Of a stretch of DNA of 64,000 bases, positions 41,908 to 50,653 are shown in pieces. Made by a program: the position numbers and the translations under genes. The notes under the pieces are model-generated. The model saw nothing but the letters and a program-made list of their open reading frames with translations, did not search any database and was not told the DNA's origin. The DNA is taken from contig JAMLID010000003.1 in assembly GCA_023954355.1 (NCBI GenBank), forward strand, positions 21,270 to 85,269, read 5' to 3'. Each line of letters begins with the position of its first letter. Positions within the stretch are counted from its first letter, which is position 1. This DNA comes from Oligoflexia bacterium. Lineage in GTDB: Bacteria; Bdellovibrionota; UBA1018; CAIPTA01.

Positions 41908-43743
41908 ATGCTAACTAGAAAAGTAGTTCTACGAGCCATTTTGTGTACTGTACTAGGTTTGTTGCCACTTCCTGATTTAGAGACCTCGTTTTACGACTGG
42001 AAGCTGCGCTTTACCTCTTCGTTTTTCACAAAACCGGTCTCTGATTTAGTAATTTTAGAAGTATCTAGAGATGACTTTGATTTACTTAAATCCCAAGCGA
42101 TTCAAAACCAAGCTTTACCAAGCGAAAACTCTATTTGGAGAGCCAAATACGAGAATTTGAGAGCACAGTTTTTATGGGATGATGGAGCCTATAAGTATCT
42201 TTTAGAAAAGCTTTTATCTTTTCAACCTAATCGCATTCTTATCACCTTCTTTTTTGGTGAAAACCTAGTCGTACTTAAAGACAATCCGCATTTACAGAAA
42301 TTAGTACGAGACAAACGAATCATTTGGTCCAGCCAATTTGATATAGATCAAAAACTACTAAAACCTGCACCAGAGCTCACAGGAACAGAGAATTATGGAT
42401 TTTCAAATTTTCATCCTGACCCAGATGGCATTATCCGTTCTGCCTACTTAGTCTATAGAAATCATATTTCAATAGCCTATCGTAGTTTATTTGATAATCC
42501 GCAAGTTACTGATTGGCGTGTTCCGCTTGGGAGTAAAACCTCTATTTTTTTTAATGGCCCTGCAGGAACCTATCGATCTTGCAGTCTAAGAGAACTACTC
42601 ATAGATCAATGTGGAGACTTAAATAAAAAAACAATTATTGTTTCTCCCACTAGTAAAATTGTTGCGGGTGCTAGCCTATACCAAAGTCCTTTGGGCTATT
42701 TAAGTCGAGGTGAAATTTTAGCGAATATTATCGATACTGTTCGCTACAATGCTAATTTAGTGACAATTGCTCGCCCTTATTTTGTGCCTCTCATATTTTT
42801 CTATGCACTTTTTTTGTCGATTTTATTTTCTTCACGAAAATTTTCTAGAAAGATGATAGGTGCCGTAGCCAGTCTTTTGCTGATTACTGTCAGCTCTATT
42901 CTTCTCTTTGCATACAGTAAACTTCAACTTCCTCTTGTGCCTATTTACTTAACTTTTATTTCAAGTGTTGTTCTCTATTTTTGGGTTTATTATAACCTTG
43001 AAGAATCCAAACGATGGAAAGCTGAAAAACAGACTCAATATTTGCAAGAAATTGACGAATTAAAATCAAACTTCATGTCACTCATGAGTCATGATCTCAA
43101 AACACCAATAGCGAAAGTTCAGGCTCTCACTGAAAGATTAAAACGTTATCCAGAGCTGAGGTCAGAGCAAAGAGAAATCGTTGAATCAATTGAAAAAAGT
43201 AATAATGAACTTAGCGAATACATTTTAAGTATTTTAAATTTTCAACGCATCGAGAACCAAGAGCTACGCCTTCATAAAAAAAGCCACGACATAAATGTTC
43301 TTATCGAAGAAGTAGTTAAGAGGCTACAACCTTTAGCAGAAGAAAAGTCGATTTCTATTGAACTTGATCTTGAGCCCATGTTTTCACTAGAATTCGATGA
43401 ACAATTGATTCGTCAGGTACTTAACAATCTTATAGACAACTCTATTAAATATAATGAAAAAGGTATTTCCGTTATTATTCGCTCTAGAGACTTAGAATCT
43501 AAAATTCAAGTTTCCATAGAAGACAATGGTGTAGGAATTGAGCCTGAGCAACTGCCTCATCTTTTTCAAAAATTTTCTCGCAAAGAAAAAACAACTTCTG
43601 AACGAGTAAAGGGAACAGGTCTAGGTCTTTATTTAGCGAAATACTTTATCGAACTACATGGGGGCGAAATTTCTGCCCAATCTACACCTGGTGAGAAAAC
43701 TCTCTTTTCGTTTACGATTCCTATATCAGAAGAGCAAAGCTAG
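41908..43743 (+). CDS. Sensor histidine kinase with CHASE2-like periplasmic domain
   Basis: DPDGIIR, three TMs, SHDLKTP H-box, NLIDNSIKY, DNGVGI, GTGLGL. Confidence 0.9.
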   Translation: MLTRKVVLRAILCTVLGLLPLPDLETSFYDWKLRFTSSFFTKPVSDLVILEVSRDDFDLLKSQAIQNQALPSENSIWRAKYENLRAQFLWDDGAYKYLLEKLLSFQPNRILITFFFGENLVVLKDNPHLQKLVRDKRIIWSSQFDIDQKLLKPAPELTGTENYGFSNFHPDPDGIIRSAYLVYRNHISIAYRSLFDNPQVTDWRVPLGSKTSIFFNGPAGTYRSCSLRELLIDQCGDLNKKTIIVSPTSKIVAGASLYQSPLGYLSRGEILANIIDTVRYNANLVTIARPYFVPLIFFYALFLSILFSSRKFSRKMIGAVASLLLITVSSILLFAYSKLQLPLVPIYLTFISSVVLYFWVYYNLEESKRWKAEKQTQYLQEIDELKSNFMSLMSHDLKTPIAKVQALTERLKRYPELRSEQREIVESIEKSNNELSEYILSILNFQRIENQELRLHKKSHDINVLIEEVVKRLQPLAEEKSISIELDLEPMFSLEFDEQLIRQVLNNLIDNSIKYNEKGISVIIRSRDLESKIQVSIEDNGVGIEPEQLPHLFQKFSRKEKTTSERVKGTGLGLYLAKYFIELHGGEISAQSTPGEKTLFSFTIPISEEQS

Positions 43744-43827
43744 GCTTTAGAACCAAACCGTAGTTTAAATAATTGATAACTACCTAAATTTATGGATATT
43801 TTCAAATAATGCGATGCAATATATAAA

Positions 43828-43856
43828 TTGACTTTTTCTACTTAGTTTTCTATAAG
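43828..43856 (+). promoter_or_regulatory. Sigma70-type promoter of the response regulator
   Basis: TTGACT-17 nt-TATAAG ending 11 nt before ATG 43868. Confidence 0.65.
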
Positions 43857-43867
43857 ATAGCTCTACT

Positions 43868-45349
43868 ATGGAAAAAACTGAGCCAAAGATCTTAATTGCC
43901 GATGACGAAAAAGATTTAAGAGAAAGTATTTCTGCGGCCCTTGAACATATGGGCTTTTCAACTGCTATTGCAGCCGATGGCCAAGAGGCTATTGATAAAG
44001 TTAAAGAAGGTGATTTCTCTATCGCAATTCTAGATGTGAATATGCCTCGCGTGGATGGATTAAATGCGCTTAAGGCAATTAAAGAAATCGACCCGTCTAT
44101 TCTGGTTCTCATGATTACAGCACATGGAAATGTAAGCGATGCTGTGAACGCACTTAAAGAAGGTGCCTACAACTATATTGAAAAGCCTGTTAAGGAATCT
44201 CACTTAAAAGAACTCGTTCAGAGAGCAAGTCAGACTCACCAAGCAGTTGTTGACGTTTCGTTTTCTTCTCCTACATTGACATTAGAAAATGGGAAAGAAT
44301 TTGTTGGCAACTCTCGACAAATGAAAAGCGTTTTCTTATTGATTCAACGCCTAGCAAACGTAGCTACCTCTGTATTAATTCGTGGAGAAAATGGAACTGG
44401 TAAAGAACTAGTAGCCTCTGCCATTCACCATTATGGGCCACGTAAAGATAAACGATTTGTAGCTGTAAATTGTGGCGCTATTCCTGAAAATCTTATGGAG
44501 AGTGAGCTCTTTGGTCATGAAAAAGGAGCCTTTACGGGTGCGCAATCTAGGCATATTGGAAAGTTTCAATATGCCGAAGGCGGAACTCTTTTTTTAGATG
44601 AAGTTGGCGAGCTTTCACAGAGCATGCAAGTGAAGTTACTTCGTGTATTGCAAGAAAGAACATTTAGTCCCATAGGCTCTAATAGAGAAATCAAATGTGA
44701 TGTAAGAATTATCGCAGCCACGAATAGAGACTTAGAGGCTATGATTGCAAAAGGAACTTTTCGTCAAGATCTTTATTATCGCTTAAATGTAATGCCCATC
44801 TTCTTGCCTCCTCTAAGAGATCGAAAAGAAGATATTGCTATTTTAGCTACGAACTTTATTCGCAAATTTAACAAATTACATAATCGTTCTATTCAAGGCA
44901 TTTCAGATTCAGCCTTAAGCCGCTTACGCTCTTATGAATGGCCAGGCAATATTCGAGAATTAGAAAATGCTATTGAAAGCTCTTTTGTATTAGAGCTAGG
45001 TGATAAGATTCAACTTCAATCACTGCCTTCTTCGGTCAGTGGTATTGAGTACGATTCCCCTCTTGGCGCTATGGACTCAACAGAAGAAAATCTGACGTCA
45101 GACGAGCTTGGAAGCGATTTAAATGTGGCGGGAATCGACTTTCAGATTGAGAAAGAAGAGTTCGAAAGACAGTTTATTATAAATGCGCTTAAGCGTTTTA
45201 ATGGAAAAATCAATCAAACCGTTGCTCATGCAAATATTCCAAAAAACACCCTTTTAAGAAAAATTAAAAAATATGATATTAAGCCCTCTGAGTATGGTCG
45301 ATCTGATGCTGATCAGGACGATGAAATGATTCCCGACGAGACTCTTTAA
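43868..45349 (+). CDS. NtrC-family sigma54-dependent response regulator
   Basis: Receiver (ADDE, LDVNMP), GENGTGKE, GAFTGA, FLDEVGE, WPGNIRELEN, Fis-type HTH. Confidence 0.95.
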   Translation: MEKTEPKILIADDEKDLRESISAALEHMGFSTAIAADGQEAIDKVKEGDFSIAILDVNMPRVDGLNALKAIKEIDPSILVLMITAHGNVSDAVNALKEGAYNYIEKPVKESHLKELVQRASQTHQAVVDVSFSSPTLTLENGKEFVGNSRQMKSVFLLIQRLANVATSVLIRGENGTGKELVASAIHHYGPRKDKRFVAVNCGAIPENLMESELFGHEKGAFTGAQSRHIGKFQYAEGGTLFLDEVGELSQSMQVKLLRVLQERTFSPIGSNREIKCDVRIIAATNRDLEAMIAKGTFRQDLYYRLNVMPIFLPPLRDRKEDIAILATNFIRKFNKLHNRSIQGISDSALSRLRSYEWPGNIRELENAIESSFVLELGDKIQLQSLPSSVSGIEYDSPLGAMDSTEENLTSDELGSDLNVAGIDFQIEKEEFERQFIINALKRFNGKINQTVAHANIPKNTLLRKIKKYDIKPSEYGRSDADQDDEMIPDETL

Positions 45350-45356
45350 TACCCAT

Positions 45357-45882
45357 ATTTTATCAATGCCGACTTTACCTTGAGAAAACAAGAAATGCTC
45401 CAAAAGAGTAAGGCGACTAGTGAAGCGTGCATCTAGCACGCTGGAACGAGCGACGAGAAGTGAACGCAGCTATTTGTTTCGATTATAAACATGGAGGGTT
45501 TGTAAAATTGCTCTAGATCGCGGCGACGAACTAATCTTTACCGTGAGCCGTCCTAGTGGACGGCGGAACGGAAAGTTAGTTCGCCAACAAAGAGCTAGAC
45601 AATTTTACGAAGCCGACTTTAAGTCTGGAGGCATTGAGAAATTAGGCTATAGCAAGGAAGTTATCGATGGACAAACGTGAAGCGCCCTAGTGGGCGCTGG
45701 AACGGAGTCCGAGATAACTAACGAAGAAAGAGTCAATTTATCGATGCAGACTGTATAGGGAGAAGGTAAGAAATGGCTCAAGAGCAAGGCGACGAACGAG
45801 GAGAGTCGTGAAGCGTGCATCTAGCACGCTGGAACGAGCGACGAGAAGTGAACGCAGCTATTGAACATTTATTGCCTTCTCT
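45357..45882. repeat. Array of four long palindromic repeat units (~130-bp period) plus a remnant arm
   Basis: Exact 55-bp direct repeat at 45420-45474 and 45808-45862; shared GT-GA-[7-bp hairpin]-GGA-ACG core in all four units. Confidence 0.85.
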
Positions 45883-48094
45883 AAAAGCAGAAGAGCATTT
45901 CGCGGTATTTGGGTAGAGGCCAATACCCATTACCCACCATCACTTCGATTTTATCGCAAGCATCTCGTAGTTCTAACATTGCTGGTAAAACTTTTTTAGC
46001 CTGTGCTTCTGCTTTTTTGTATTCGCTATCTAAGGTATTTGCGGCAACTTGTAATTCTTCGAAGGATTTTCTCTTTTTTGCGATATCACTATAAGCATCG
46101 AGAATTTTTTTAATTAATTGCTCTGTCGGACTTTTTTCAAACCCTGCTTCTCTCTGGCGAATCAATGCTTCTGATAAATCAGAAATATATGAATTTACTG
46201 CTGGCGTAATATAGGTATCTACAAGAGTTTTCATTACTTCTGTCTCAATATCTACTTTTTTCACATATCGCTCTAACTGAACATGGTGACGGCTAGCCAA
46301 TTCTTCTTCTGTTAGGATTTTTAACTTAGTAAACAAATTTTTTGTAGACGCTAAAGTAAAAGCATCTAACGCTTCAGGAGTATCGCGATAGTGGGTAAGA
46401 CCTCTTCTTTCAGCTTCAACAATCCATTCTGCACTATAACCATTACCCTCAAAGCGAATTTGAGAATGTTTTTGCACAACTTCACGAATCACTTCCATAG
46501 CAGCAAGAGACATTTCTTTACCAGATTTCATTTTCTGAGAAATCTCTGCTGTAATTTCTGCCATCGACTCAGCAACTGCTGCATTCAAGCAAGTAATAGG
46601 CAATGAACAGCTTGCTGACGAACCTACTGCTCGGAATTCAAATTTATTTCCGGTAAATGCAAATGGAGATGTTCTATTTCTATCAGTATTATCTTTGGTA
46701 AGTAAAGGAAGCTTTGAAACACCTAAATTAATCATAGCTCTTTCTGCGTTCTCAATCGCTTCACCACTCTTAATTTTATCCATAATCATATTGAGCTGAT
46801 CACCTAAGAAAATACTCATAATAGCTGGGGGGGCTTCATTTGCCCCTAATCGGTGATCATTACCTACGCTAGCAATTGAAGCCCTTAATAAACCGTTGTG
46901 ACTATGCACTCCTTTTAAAATAGAAGCCAAGATCACCAAGAAGCGTAAATTTTCATGTGGCGTTGCTCCTGGCTCTAAGAGGTTTTCTCCTGAATCAGTA
47001 CTCATAGACCAGTTGTTGTGTTTTCCTGAACCGTTGATTCCTGCAAAAGGTTTTTCGTGAAGCACAAGCACAAACTCATGTCTTCTTGCTACTTTTGTTA
47101 GCATTTCCATAATCAAATGGTTGTGATCAACAGATACGTTAGCGTCTTCGAAAATAGGAGCAATTTCAAATTGCGCTGGTGCCACTTCATTATGTCGAGT
47201 TTTTGCTGGCACTCCCAATCGATATAACTCAAATTCTACTTCTTGCATGAAAGCCGTTACACGTGAAGGAATCGAGCCAAAGTAGTGATCCTCTAATTCT
47301 TGACCCTTTGGTGGCCTTGCGCCTTGCAAAGTTCTACCCGCCAAAATTAAATCAGGACGTAACCCAAAATACGTTCTATCAATTAAAAAGTATTCTTGTT
47401 CAACACCAAGAGTAGCTGTCACTCTTTTTACATCTTTAGAACCTAAAAGCTTTAATAATTCGCAAGCATTTGTTGAAAGTGCTTCGATAGATCGCAAAAG
47501 CGGTGTTTTCTCATCTAGTGCATGACCATGATAACTTACAAAGGCTGAGGGAATACATAATGTACGGCCATTCGTTGATGTCATCATAAACATGGGGCTT
47601 GTAGGATCCCAAGCGGTATATCCTCTTGCTTCGAAAGTTGTACGAATTCCACCTGATGGAAAACTAGATGCGTCTGGCTCAGATTGAATTAACTGAGAAC
47701 CAGAAAATTTTTCTATGGTGCTACCATCGTCATTAAAAGAAATAAAAGCATCATGTTTTTCTGCAGTCGTACCCGTCATAGGTTGAAACCAATGGCAAAA
47801 ATGCGTGATTCCCATTTCCATTGCCCAGTTACGAACGGCCTTTGCAATTTTATCTGCTAAATCTTTTTCTAAGGGTTTTCCTAAAGAAGTAAGTTCGATA
47901 AATTTTTCATAATCCGCCTTTGAAATCGCTGATTTAATCTCTTTTACACCAAACGTATACTGTCCAAAATAATCAGACACAGAAAGTGATCGACCTAAAT
48001 CATCTTTCGGTACATCGAACTTTCTTGGTTGGCGGCTAATGGCTTTTTCTATGGCGGCGAATCTTGCTTGGGTCTCGACTGTTTGATTAGGCAT
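45881..48094 (-). CDS. Glutamine synthetase type III
   Basis: HWFQPMTGTTAEKHD, EPDASSFPSGG, RHNEVAPAQ, HEKPFAGINGSGKHNNWS, DRNRTSPFAFTGNKFEFR; 737 aa. Confidence 0.96.
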   Translation of the reverse strand: MPNQTVETQARFAAIEKAISRQPRKFDVPKDDLGRSLSVSDYFGQYTFGVKEIKSAISKADYEKFIELTSLGKPLEKDLADKIAKAVRNWAMEMGITHFCHWFQPMTGTTAEKHDAFISFNDDGSTIEKFSGSQLIQSEPDASSFPSGGIRTTFEARGYTAWDPTSPMFMMTSTNGRTLCIPSAFVSYHGHALDEKTPLLRSIEALSTNACELLKLLGSKDVKRVTATLGVEQEYFLIDRTYFGLRPDLILAGRTLQGARPPKGQELEDHYFGSIPSRVTAFMQEVEFELYRLGVPAKTRHNEVAPAQFEIAPIFEDANVSVDHNHLIMEMLTKVARRHEFVLVLHEKPFAGINGSGKHNNWSMSTDSGENLLEPGATPHENLRFLVILASILKGVHSHNGLLRASIASVGNDHRLGANEAPPAIMSIFLGDQLNMIMDKIKSGEAIENAERAMINLGVSKLPLLTKDNTDRNRTSPFAFTGNKFEFRAVGSSASCSLPITCLNAAVAESMAEITAEISQKMKSGKEMSLAAMEVIREVVQKHSQIRFEGNGYSAEWIVEAERRGLTHYRDTPEALDAFTLASTKNLFTKLKILTEEELASRHHVQLERYVKKVDIETEVMKTLVDTYITPAVNSYISDLSEALIRQREAGFEKSPTEQLIKKILDAYSDIAKKRKSFEELQVAANTLDSEYKKAEAQAKKVLPAMLELRDACDKIEVMVGNGYWPLPKYREMLFCF

Positions 48095-48595: not shown

Positions 48596-50653
48596 TTAGT
48601 TTCCAGCAACTGATGGAGTAAAGCTAAACGGATAAGAGACTTCTACTATTCCCCCACCTACAGGCTCAGGAAAAACAATCTTTTTCAAGATTCCTGTTAA
48701 ACATCTCTCTACATTAGCGTTTCCAATATCAGAAGATTTAACACCAGCAACACTAACTCTACCCGAGCCTGAGATCACAAACTGGGTGAGAATTCTACCC
48801 TTTAGATTTGGAGATGAATTGAGCTCTTTTACATAGCAATATCGAATTTGCGGCATATGTCTTCTAATAATTTCATCAATGAGTCCCTTATCTAGGCCTC
48901 CCATGATGATTGTCTCAGACGCATTACCTACTTCTACGTTAGGTCTGCCTCCTCCGACACCAGTTCCGGCTAGGTTTCCTCCACTGCCAATGGCTCCTAC
49001 TCCACTACCTTTTTCACCATCACCAATGCCTTTGGTTCCCAGACCTTCAACCGTTGCAGAGGTACCACCCCCACCAGTTCCTGATCCTAGATTACCTAAA
49101 CCACCATTTCCTTCGGTAGTGAAAGCACCATATCCCCTCAGTCTTTGCCCTGCAGAACTTGCACCCTTACCTGCAGCCGCAAGATTTTTATTGATGTTTC
49201 CACCAATATCACTGAATAGAGCTTCTACGTTTCCACTTCCTTGAACCGCACTTTTCGCATTTGTAGGTGCGCTTGGGCTTCCCTTAGAGGCATACATCCC
49301 ACGAGCAGCTTTGGGTTTATTCGGCTCTCCCTTACGGCCTTCCGTTCCTTTGGCTCTTGCACCTTCGCCTTCATCCCCACCAGCTGCTTTTGCAGGTTTT
49401 CCTTTTACTTGGTTAACTGCTTGCACTGGCTTTTCTGTTGGCTTTGTCTTCACTGGCTGAGGCTTAACTGCCGGCTTTACTTCTTTTGGAAGCTCCTTAG
49501 GAGGAGGCGGCAGCTTCTTAGGTGGAGGCGGAGGAGGAGGCGGCTTCTTCTCAGGCTCTACCTTCGGCTCAGGTGGCTTCGGCTGCGGCGGCTGTTTCAC
49601 CGGCGGAGGCGGAGTCACAGGTTTAAAAATAATATTTGCTACCCTTGGCGGCAGCTCTTCAGTTTCTAATTCTTCTGCTGGCTGCACTACTGAAAGCAAA
49701 GAAACAATGGCTGCAGTCATAAGAAGTGAAGTAATCCAAATTTTAAAATAAAAAGGATCTCTTTCTAAAATTCTTTGTGGCTTTAAATGTGGAGGAACAG
49801 GAGTAAAACTTACAAAAAAAGTAATCCCCCTAAAGGTAATTTTAGCTAAGTCATTCTGCTGAAGCGCAATCGTATTGCTTCCGTAATCTTCAATAGGAAT
49901 CACTCTTTTTCCTGTACGAATGACTCCCGTCATATCGCCAGTGCAGTGAAGAGTTACGCCGTTAGAGAAACTGACAAAAGAAAAGTCAGAATGCATTCCG
50001 GGAACTAAAAATGTAGCTTTTTGTCCCTCGCCTAAAGTTACATCTTCTTTATCAACAAAGTGTTTTACATCAAGGATTACGTCGCCCCAATGCATGACAA
50101 CTTGAAGCGCTTGCTCGCCTGCAGAAGGATAATCGAAAATTTGAATAACGTTTCTCTCGTCTTCTAAAATGAGTGGCTTAAAATCTTCTTGCGCATCAAA
50201 AAATAGTTTTCTGCCACTAGAGCTTGTTTTAACAATCTCTTTAGGAATCTGCTTTTGCGCTTCTTGCATCGGTACTTTTTTGAACGTGATAGTAGCAAAA
50301 CCGACTTTTAACTCATCTCCGTCTTTTAGCTCTGAAACAAGAGTTTTTCGATCATTTAAAAATACTCCAGTTTCACTGGCCATATCGTAAACCTGAACAA
50401 GACCGGTCTCATCCATCTCTACGACCGCATGGACGTTAGAAACCGCATTTTGCTGAATCCGAATATCGCTTGATAGCGCACTACCAATCACGACCCTCTT
50501 CTTATTTACTTTATATGTTTTCTTGGACTCTTCTTTTCCTACGCCAACAATGACATTAAAAACGAGTACCCAATCAGAAACACCTACTTCGATTGACTGC
50601 TCTTGGCTCTTCTGACCTATTTGTTTATCGTCCATGGTTTCCTCCAAATTCAC
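48596..50653 (-). CDS. gltG: Gliding motility protein GltG/PglI-like (FHA, TM, Pro-rich, Gly-rich, TonB-C-like)
   Basis: FHA-like N-terminus, TM helix, PPP-rich linker, GGLD..I..IIRRH..QIRYCY..FPEP.GG..V.VSYPF C-terminal domain. Confidence 0.85.
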   Translation of the reverse strand: MNLEETMDDKQIGQKSQEQSIEVGVSDWVLVFNVIVGVGKEESKKTYKVNKKRVVIGSALSSDIRIQQNAVSNVHAVVEMDETGLVQVYDMASETGVFLNDRKTLVSELKDGDELKVGFATITFKKVPMQEAQKQIPKEIVKTSSSGRKLFFDAQEDFKPLILEDERNVIQIFDYPSAGEQALQVVMHWGDVILDVKHFVDKEDVTLGEGQKATFLVPGMHSDFSFVSFSNGVTLHCTGDMTGVIRTGKRVIPIEDYGSNTIALQQNDLAKITFRGITFFVSFTPVPPHLKPQRILERDPFYFKIWITSLLMTAAIVSLLSVVQPAEELETEELPPRVANIIFKPVTPPPPVKQPPQPKPPEPKVEPEKKPPPPPPPPKKLPPPPKELPKEVKPAVKPQPVKTKPTEKPVQAVNQVKGKPAKAAGGDEGEGARAKGTEGRKGEPNKPKAARGMYASKGSPSAPTNAKSAVQGSGNVEALFSDIGGNINKNLAAAGKGASSAGQRLRGYGAFTTEGNGGLGNLGSGTGGGGTSATVEGLGTKGIGDGEKGSGVGAIGSGGNLAGTGVGGGRPNVEVGNASETIIMGGLDKGLIDEIIRRHMPQIRYCYVKELNSSPNLKGRILTQFVISGSGRVSVAGVKSSDIGNANVERCLTGILKKIVFPEPVGGGIVEVSYPFSFTPSVAGN

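Follow-up and report, generated by a model that had tools for sequence, protein, structure and literature searches.

Four long hairpins lie in the gap between the convergent genes of a sigma-54-dependent response regulator and a type III glutamine synthetase (GSIII), in a 64,000-nt stretch of the genome of an Oligoflexia bacterium (the window, to whose first letter the positions below refer). They are copies of a Bdellovibrionota-wide family of ~122-127-nt single-hairpin elements that is apparently undescribed. The two features most informative about these elements, their docking on gene 3′ ends and their fixed orientation relative to replication, were absent from the sequence-only reading that had first described the array. 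Our preferred reading, which we hold tentatively, is that of a non-autonomous element that is REP/BIME-like in behaviour and yet distinct, which would be handled as a single strand, added unit by unit behind leading-strand genes and kept under selection. The genome of the window is called G000; other sampled genomes carry G numbers and the loci fetched from them L numbers.

The hairpin array of the window

The gap measures 530 bp and comprises a single right-arm remnant, a unit with an internal deletion and three complete hairpin units of ~122 nt (Table 1). Cores of the form GTGA-[7 bp]-loop-[7 bp]-GGAACG, which the sequence-only reading had announced together with their stems, were found at the four positions mapped for them (45420-45448, 45543-45570, 45677-45704 and 45808-45836), with the apical stems AGCGTGC/GCACGCT (twice), GCCGTCC/GGACGGC and AGCGCCC/GGGCGCT. 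The apex-to-apex distances, previously given as ~122, 134 and 132, measure about 123, 134 and 131 nt. Units 2-4 are interrupted hairpins of ~120 nt each, and units 2 and 3 start with TGGAGG and end with GCCGACT and GCAGACT, respectively; both the long stems and the termini noticed earlier, TGGAGG and GC(C/A)GACT, are thus borne out in fold and sequence. Unit 1 retains the core only and, since it covers just positions 19-104 of the covariance model described below, can be considered internally deleted. It is 95% identical to unit 4 across 64 nt (direct-repeat family D1; 0.94 identity on model columns), in keeping with its earlier description as a deleted relative of that unit. The lone right arm, also recognized before, shows 79-84% similarity over 45359-45377 to the corresponding arms of units 2 and 3 (direct-repeat family D3). 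Folding of the whole gap gave -195.9 kcal/mol on the + strand (z = -9.0 with respect to 100 shuffles) and -170.4 kcal/mol on the - strand (z = -7.6). The last bases of unit 4 overlap the GSIII stop codon (complement of 45881-45883).

Distribution of the family

A script search for the core pattern with a pairing stem gave 17 occurrences in the 3.15-Mb genome G000, a profile search gave 26 matches at E < 1e-3, and a covariance model (R1) built from 21 units likewise gave 26 matches. The search for further copies with such a model, proposed in the sequence-only reading, was therefore positive in G000 and also in other genomes: family members were matched in 11 of 41 relatives (G000 included), in seven of the eight other genomes of the same family as G000, with copy numbers from 0 to 30, and in 23 of the 151 Bdellovibrionota genomes of the phylum sample. 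Three complete genomes (G149, G157 and G127) hold a subfamily that is more homogeneous and shares the loop motifs, at about 22-29 copies each, counted as matches to one unit; 26 copies of this second subfamily were aligned with a second model, R2. The counts over 70 units given below refer to a set drawn from nine genomes. Most loci carry one unit only, and tandem arrays are seen in the window and at L011, L072 and L050. Paralogous copies are old: they have an average identity of 0.55 inside a genome and 0.53 across genomes, with the nearest neighbour of a genome usually at 0.65-0.75.

With one genome per prokaryotic species, a strict degenerate pattern matched 28 loci, 11 of them in two records of metagenome-assembled genomes (an Oligoflexia bacterium and an uncultured Bdellovibrionales bacterium). 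The other 17, all from other phyla, fail the covariance model (best E 0.074), and there is therefore no evidence for the family outside Bdellovibrionota. Six of the pattern matches, in metagenome-assembled genomes of Acidobacteriota/Terriglobia (L107, L109, L116, L117, L122 and L133), are of near-equal length (49-51 nt) and compare with roughly 3 chance matches expected in total; these six, which fail the covariance model, probably share some other conserved sequence.

The Rfam scan suggested earlier as a check of novelty matched no family: Rfam 15 at gathering scores gave no match in the 64-kb window or in three 20-kb loci of the second subfamily. When E values up to 10 were allowed over a 1.6-kb stretch, only two chance-level matches appeared, osmY (18 nt within unit 3, 45652-45669, E 3) and idnO (46076-46220, E 4.8), which does not touch a unit. 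Literature searches on REP/RAYT, on Bdellovibrio repeats and small RNAs, on replication orientation, on stop codons and tmRNA, and with a 20-nt string of the element returned no description of the family. The words 'repeat' and 'hairpin' are absent from the available text of the Bdellovibrio transcriptome paper (PMC3627812), whose supplementary tables could list transcripts over units.

Fold, covariation and folding strand

The unit adopts a rod-like fold in which three conserved, purine-rich internal loops are placed between freely covarying stems. The conserved loop sequences are CAAGaTCrAGGCG facing GCAACGnAGAGATTGG and CGTGA facing GGAACG. Over the 70 units the modelled partners pair in 93.6% of alignment cells, compared with 67.4% after shuffling (none of 500 shuffles reaches the observed value) and 31-43% when the partners are slid; double-sided changes account for 565 cells, and 28 of the 32 pairs covary. 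The earlier statement that structure is conserved over sequence therefore holds for the family. The outermost 8-9 pairs are the most variable part of the unit, with up to 4-6 pair types per position. A CTAG-containing apex, which had been taken as a constant feature, is present in all four window units and is not a family trait, being absent from the other 13 core-pattern copies (their loops, read by eye, are TTATG, TACT, TCTT, TCACA etc.).

The two strands of the unit are not equivalent. The forward strand (the + strand in the window) is the more stable one in 66 of 67 units, with a mean of -58.3 kcal/mol versus -48.0 kcal/mol for its complement. Among the modelled pairs, G-U outnumber A-C combinations on the forward strand by 83 to 25 in the 70-unit set and by 53 to 4 in the 26 copies of the second subfamily aligned with R2. 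These counts come from alignments fitted to a model, which leans towards pairs; symmetric minimum-energy folding of both strands in the second subfamily gives the same asymmetry (98 G-U pairs forward and 39 reverse). Since the usual leading-strand mutation bias would be expected to enrich the opposite kind of mismatch, we infer that the wobble asymmetry reflects selection on the forward strand as a single strand, a signal that RNA and DNA would leave alike.

In four loci of the second subfamily (L148, L145, L170 and L141) a shared motif, CCCC-A(5-8)-CCGGGAAYCA, is found immediately 5′ of the hairpin, and the unit of this subfamily may extend further in that direction.

Docking on gene 3′ ends

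The 3′ end of the unit abuts the 3′ end of a gene on the opposite strand (stop codon, tRNA or tmRNA) in 44 of the 70 units. In 34 of them the stop codon of a converging open reading frame (ORF) falls within -15..+8 nt of the unit 3′ end, compared with only two converging ORFs in the same range at the 5′ end (hand count from the table of units); a further ten abut, within about 4 nt, the 3′ ends of opposite-strand tRNA genes (Val x2, Leu x2, Arg x2, Ala, Phe and Pro) or of tmRNA. Of the units left over, at least six occupy inner positions in tandem arrays. In the docked cases the first paired base mostly falls -4..+5 nt from the stop codon, and 37 of the 66 units with both neighbours called sit between convergent ORFs. 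The second subfamily is docked as well (17/21 and 21/26 units in two sets). At the window locus, the C-terminus and stop position of GSIII equal those of eight relatives, and the array can therefore be said to begin right at the native stop codon.

Where filled sites (L042, L056 and L076) were compared with the empty orthologous sites of G000, the unit was found between the stop codon and the gene's own terminator, a GC hairpin with a T-run that lies distal to it. A simple scan gave a distal canonical terminator for 14 of 69 units, rarely in G000. The possibility that the units themselves are canonical terminators was rejected, since such terminators are distal where present and no terminator-like site exists on either strand in window 45000-46200.

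The docked genes have no common function in either subfamily. A nitrogen or stringent-response theme (GDH, GSIII, an aminotransferase, RelA/SpoT, a DksA-like protein) was considered and rejected because the genes docked by the second subfamily are unrelated (Fur, PGK, TGT, ABC ATPases, dUTPase).

Orientation relative to replication

In G000, 25 of 26 copies, corresponding to 21 of 22 loci, have the forward strand of the unit on the C-rich strand, in a genome where the G-rich strand carries only 55% of the long ORFs; were the orientation to follow that of a randomly chosen gene, 21 of 22 loci would have a probability of about 4e-5 (our own binomial estimate). Local GC skew over 5 kb was too noisy in other genomes (30/47), and a 20-kb gene-balanced skew was used instead, with which the forward strand is found on the C-rich strand in 16 of the 21 copies of G003. 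In the complete genomes, whose assemblies have dnaA at the sequence start, copies are '-' in the first replichore and '+' in the second in 22/22 cases (G149), 26/26 (G157) and 28/29 (G127), the last two being hand counts of element-part matches, and they are distributed along both replichores. Skew and replichore orientation together place the docked gene on the leading strand and the folding strand on the lagging-strand sequence, that is, in the leading-strand template. The better-folding strand is always antisense to the docked gene.

Gain, loss and conservation of copies

The regulator/GSIII gap lacks units in all eight relatives. A contig of a related strain (X1, ~97-98% identical over aligned contig pieces) joins 45750 to 45881, skipping 130 nt that comprise unit 4 and its 8-nt spacer; the joint has CT..CT borders, with 2 nt ambiguous and 48 nt on its shorter side. 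Because X1 lacks unit 4, and because unit 4 is a near-twin of the decayed unit 1, unit 4 appears to be a recent local copy added at the gene-proximal end, as far as one contig at depth 5 indicates. With regard to target-site duplication, this sole base-precise indel offers the 2-nt CT ambiguity, the other filled/empty pairs being too diverged on the distal side. The sequence-only reading had also offered a single multi-unit structured RNA; most loci having one unit, the array differing by exactly one unit between strains and the empty gap of the eight relatives all argue against it.

Of 52 flanking proteins taken from other genomes, only 4 map beside an element in G000, which amounts to three shared sites, and one site is filled in G149 and empty in its congeners G157, G127 and G104. 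Near-identical copies (17-52 nt) of the unit's own 3′ part are located ~8-10 nt upstream of 15 of the 70 units and look like 5′-truncated older units. In G004 (L072 = G004:C10:21689-21940, L073 and L074) the upstream partial copies are long, up to 52/52 nt identical, and two units stand in tandem, which suggests recent local duplication.

Copies at the same site in different species can be strongly conserved. Five orthologous pairs are identical at 125/125, 124/125, 104/104, 103/104 and 126/126 positions, with flanks at 0.87-0.99; another pair agrees at 118/124, and a further site (compared with both G157 and G127) at 105/124, with compensatory changes in the stems and unchanged loops. Since the paralogues are old, some orthologous copies are near-identical, and copies are gained and lost, the units seem to undergo long retention under constraint with occasional replacement or addition.

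Comparison with known repeats

REP sequences are often close to stop codons. Like REP, BIME and REPIN elements, the units are non-coding, extragenic, hairpin-forming, frequently located at stop codons and between convergent genes, clustered in tandem and variable between strains. The borders of the unit-4 indel carry CT, and cleavage by TnpA-REP needs only that dinucleotide, while strand-specific handling of single strands has been proposed for REP/RAYT systems, as far as the available parts of the sources go (PMC3333891, PMC6006769). The differences are equally clear. Each unit consists of a single ~122-nt hairpin whose conserved internal loops are asymmetric, whereas REPs are 20-40-nt palindromes or doublets of them; no GTAG or CGTC tag column is present in the consensus of the 70 units; copy number is low (2 to about 30) without a near-identical set around a master sequence (0.55 identity); no RAYT gene is flanked by these repeats; and the units are fixed in orientation to replication and to the docked gene and are docked on tRNA and tmRNA ends as well. 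The REP/BIME-like character proposed in the sequence-only reading stands as regards non-coding, multi-copy, clustered units gained and lost between relatives, and fails on tag, size, RAYT and near-identity; the units behave like REP/BIME/REPIN elements and do not belong to them.

IS200/IS605 elements (IS608, ISDra2) would share with the units strand-specific recognition of folded single-stranded DNA, and they do share the lack of sequence-recognized terminal inverted repeats, an orientation coupled to replication direction and, as far as the one base-precise indel goes, the lack of an evident target duplication, according to the accessible text of PMC3333891 and PMC6006769. The units differ from them in carrying no transposase gene and no fixed 4-5-nt target, the target appearing to be the gene end, and from MITEs in having no sequence-conserved terminal inverted repeats.

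Two repeat types of comparable length are known. The ERIC/IRU sequences of enterobacteria and the bcr1-type repeats of the Bacillus cereus group are ~120-155-nt imperfect palindromes in transcribed intergenic DNA which, as in the case of the hairpin units, show compensatory changes between copies and variable presence between strains, and for which effects at the RNA level have been proposed. They occur in either orientation, bcr1 has a target duplication, and we know of no docking of either type on stop codons or tRNA ends. No sequence is shared between them and the hairpin family, the Rfam and literature searches being negative.

The integron attC site is conserved in structure over sequence, begins at or within the stop codon of the ORF preceding it and has a folded recombinogenic strand that runs antisense to this ORF; this strand belongs to the leading-strand template in chromosomal integrons. 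The units resemble attC in structure, start, sense of the folded strand and template. The attC core sites RYYYAAC / GTTRRRY were not seen by eye in the consensus, no search for an IntI integrase having been made, and the units differ further in forming no cassette arrays, being dispersed and standing also behind tRNA genes.

Proposed mechanism and points against it

If the units are the non-autonomous element proposed above, a trans-acting enzyme specific for their structure would copy and insert them in the form of single-stranded DNA, in dependence on the direction of replication, and they would be added one at a time behind leading-strand genes at the gene-proximal end; the copies would then be retained for long periods under selection on the fold. 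A barrier or 3′-end structure at the ends of leading-strand genes would be the likeliest, though not established, role in the host. The best precedent, by analogy of mechanism, is TnpA-REP. This Y1/HUH enzyme acts on single-stranded DNA with the CT requirement mentioned, and unit-by-unit amplification of BIMEs by it is a proposed model in the available text of PMC3333891.

Several observations weigh against this account. Docking is not explained by it, a DNA enzyme having no obvious way to locate stop codons and tRNA ends with base precision. In IS200/IS605 elements the active folded strand is on the lagging-strand template, according to the accessible parts of PMC3333891 and PMC6006769; the folded strand of the units is on the other strand, and the IS200/IS605 mechanism therefore does not transfer directly. 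A linked HUH/RAYT transposase, envisaged in the sequence-only reading, did not materialize. No hairpin copy is present in the 3.4-kb locus of the Y1 gene of G000 (no model match better than E 2.3), and Y1 genes do not track the element: G004 has seven copies and G068 six, both without a PF01797 match, G002 has three matches and no unit, and Y1 genes occur in 102 of 151 phylum genomes irrespective of the element. Linkage to a RAYT was accordingly rejected, for want of both adjacency and co-occurrence. Reverse transcriptase (PF00078, RVT_1) has no match in any of five genomes (G000, G003, G004, G002 and G001), for which reason target-primed or rolling-circle reverse transcription, prompted by the 5′-truncated remnants, was dropped. 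The unit-4 indel depends on the single X1 contig, and CT is a common dinucleotide. The five 99-100% identical orthologous pairs argue for a function at the level of the host, which simple selfish spread does not predict, and the strong divergence of copies within a genome is unlike recently expanding REPINs or MITEs.

A different kind of repeat was seen beside a Y1 gene. In G157, ~36-nt palindromes of the GCAAAAGTAAGCAGGTACCTTTTGC type stand inverted on both sides of a Y1_Tnp-like ORF (G157:C1:1866563-1866823; region 1866161-1866971). Palindromes of this length (also at L138:9884-9919 and in the 5′ flanks of L174 and L178) are numerous in G157 and G127, sometimes 10-40 nt distal to the 125-nt element, and represent a separate, classical-looking REP family.

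Alternative explanations

The units could instead be a family of small structured RNA genes on the forward strand, convergent with the docked gene and ending exactly at it, whose product would be the folded ~125-nt RNA (e.g. a protein-binding or cis-antisense RNA) and in which the stem sequence of each copy would be conserved. The excess of G-U over A-C on the forward strand in both subfamilies is what such genes would show. So is the divergence of paralogues with compensation alongside near-invariant orthologous pairs amid ~90% flanks, as in tRNA-like gene families, and the orthologous pair with compensatory stem changes and unchanged loops agrees with it too. We nevertheless regard RNA genes as unlikely: a sigma-70-type consensus scan of the window gap gave no candidate promoter on the forward strand, the forward hairpin has no U-tract behind it, and the 5′ neighbour points away in 15/66 and 10/21 cases, leaving no convergent transcript to supply the RNA. 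Strict confinement to the lagging strand would be unusual in a family of RNA genes, and units have been gained or lost from one strain to another.

Read as the reverse complement, the unit would be a structure in the 3′ untranslated region of the docked gene, acting as terminator, as stabilizer against 3′ exonucleases or as RNase target, and replacing or supplementing a terminator. Since it starts within a few nucleotides of the stop codon in most docked cases, the unit must be transcribed together with the docked gene. Several relatives have ordinary GC hairpin and T-run terminators behind the GSIII gene, where G000 has the array; few element loci of G000 keep a canonical terminator, and in the second subfamily U-rich tails come after several copies on that strand (by eye). 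The wobble pairs are, however, on the wrong strand for this function, as the 83 (or 53) G-U pairs become C-A mismatches in the sense RNA. Only leading-strand genes carry the element though 45% of ORFs are on the other strand, and where checked (14/69 units; L042, L056 and L076) the gene's own terminator is still distal to the unit. A hairpin touching the CCA end of a tRNA would hardly aid maturation, and the docked genes lack a theme. A 3′-untranslated-region structure is, on these grounds, distinctly doubtful, more so than RNA genes.

Least probable of the three, and in our view quite improbable, is a host cis-acting DNA element for replication or topology, namely a polar site where leading-strand transcription units end, which a host protein would read and whose role would resemble that of BIMEs bound by gyrase or IHF, with copy turnover as a by-product of hairpin-driven slippage: orientation is nearly perfectly replichore-dependent in the complete genomes, copies lie along both replichores and orthologous copies are more conserved than the flanking genes, but copy number goes from 0 to about 30 in the family of the window's genome and from a few to about 29 in one other genus and many phylum genomes have none, so that the element is dispensable, the one-unit indel with only 2 nt of microhomology between dissimilar units is not what repeat slippage predicts, and no protein partner is known.

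Possible significance

More speculatively, and with only a minor share of our confidence, the units may belong to a general class not described so far, in which a folded single-stranded element would be installed exactly where leading-strand genes (for mRNA, tRNA or tmRNA) have their 3′ boundary, the folding strand being invariably the one with the lagging-strand sequence. Responsible for this would be either a new kind of replication-coupled insertion that reads where the functional part of a transcript ends, or a host cis-element that manages replication-transcription encounters at gene ends. If this were true, cultivable Bdellovibrio-type genomes would hold a tractable small folded repeat whose position is base-precise and whose polarity is near-perfect. 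REP/RAYT and IS200/IS605 mechanisms explain neither the gene-end position nor the polarity; the folded strand is opposite to the IS608 rule, and no sequence target is evident. The fixed orientation to replication hints at a strand-specific way of spreading or working, and the partner that recognizes the units could turn out to be an enzyme with a new activity on single-stranded DNA or to serve a function that the host exerts where leading-strand genes end. With models R1 and R2 the units can be annotated and kept apart from terminators and small RNA genes.

Gene context of the array

Table 1. Features of the array, its flanking genes and the Y1 transposase gene of G000 (window positions unless a contig is given)
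Feature	Position	Strand	Remarks
Sigma-54-dependent response regulator gene	43868..45349	+	Convergent distal neighbour, context and not element; Pfam Response_reg, Sigma54_activat, HTH_8
Lone right-arm remnant (5′-truncated unit)	45357..45377	+	8 nt past regulator stop codon; direct-repeat family D3
Unit 1, internally deleted	45403..45475	+	R1 33.7 bits, model positions 19-104 only
Unit 2, full ~122-nt hairpin	45495..45617	+	R1 103.8 bits; folds as long interrupted stem
Unit 3, full hairpin	45629..45751	+	R1 93.3 bits; abuts GSIII stop codon directly in related strain
Unit 4 with 8-nt 5′ spacer (hairpin 45761-45882)	45753..45882	+	R1 105.8 bits; the 130-nt segment absent from related strain
Type III glutamine synthetase (GSIII) gene	45881..48094	-	Array docked on its end; Pfam GSIII_N, Gln-synt_C, Gln-synt_C-ter; on G-rich (leading) strand by local GC skew
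Sole strong Y1_Tnp gene of G000 (PF01797, IS200-like)	G000:C79:77903-78262 (L082:1474-1926)		150 aa, 124.6 bits

Two promoter assignments within the array were considered and abandoned. A sigma-70 promoter of its own for each unit, with the -35 element in the right arm before it and the -10 element in the spacer, seemed credible by eye in some units and was dropped for inconsistent spacing and for lack of a + strand site in the scan; a sigma-54 promoter in the TGGAGG starts was rejected because its spacing does not fit (by eye).

Just past the rhodanese gene downstream of GSIII, window 48596-50653 encodes an FHA-domain protein with a YscD-like cytoplasmic domain, bearing no relation to the hairpin array. 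On the other side, window 41908-45349 encodes a CHASE2-domain histidine kinase followed by the sigma-54-dependent response regulator, both convergent with the GSIII gene. Regulator and GSIII stay paired in at least three relatives (L035, L038 and L041), and this conservation suggests a nitrogen-sensing pair.

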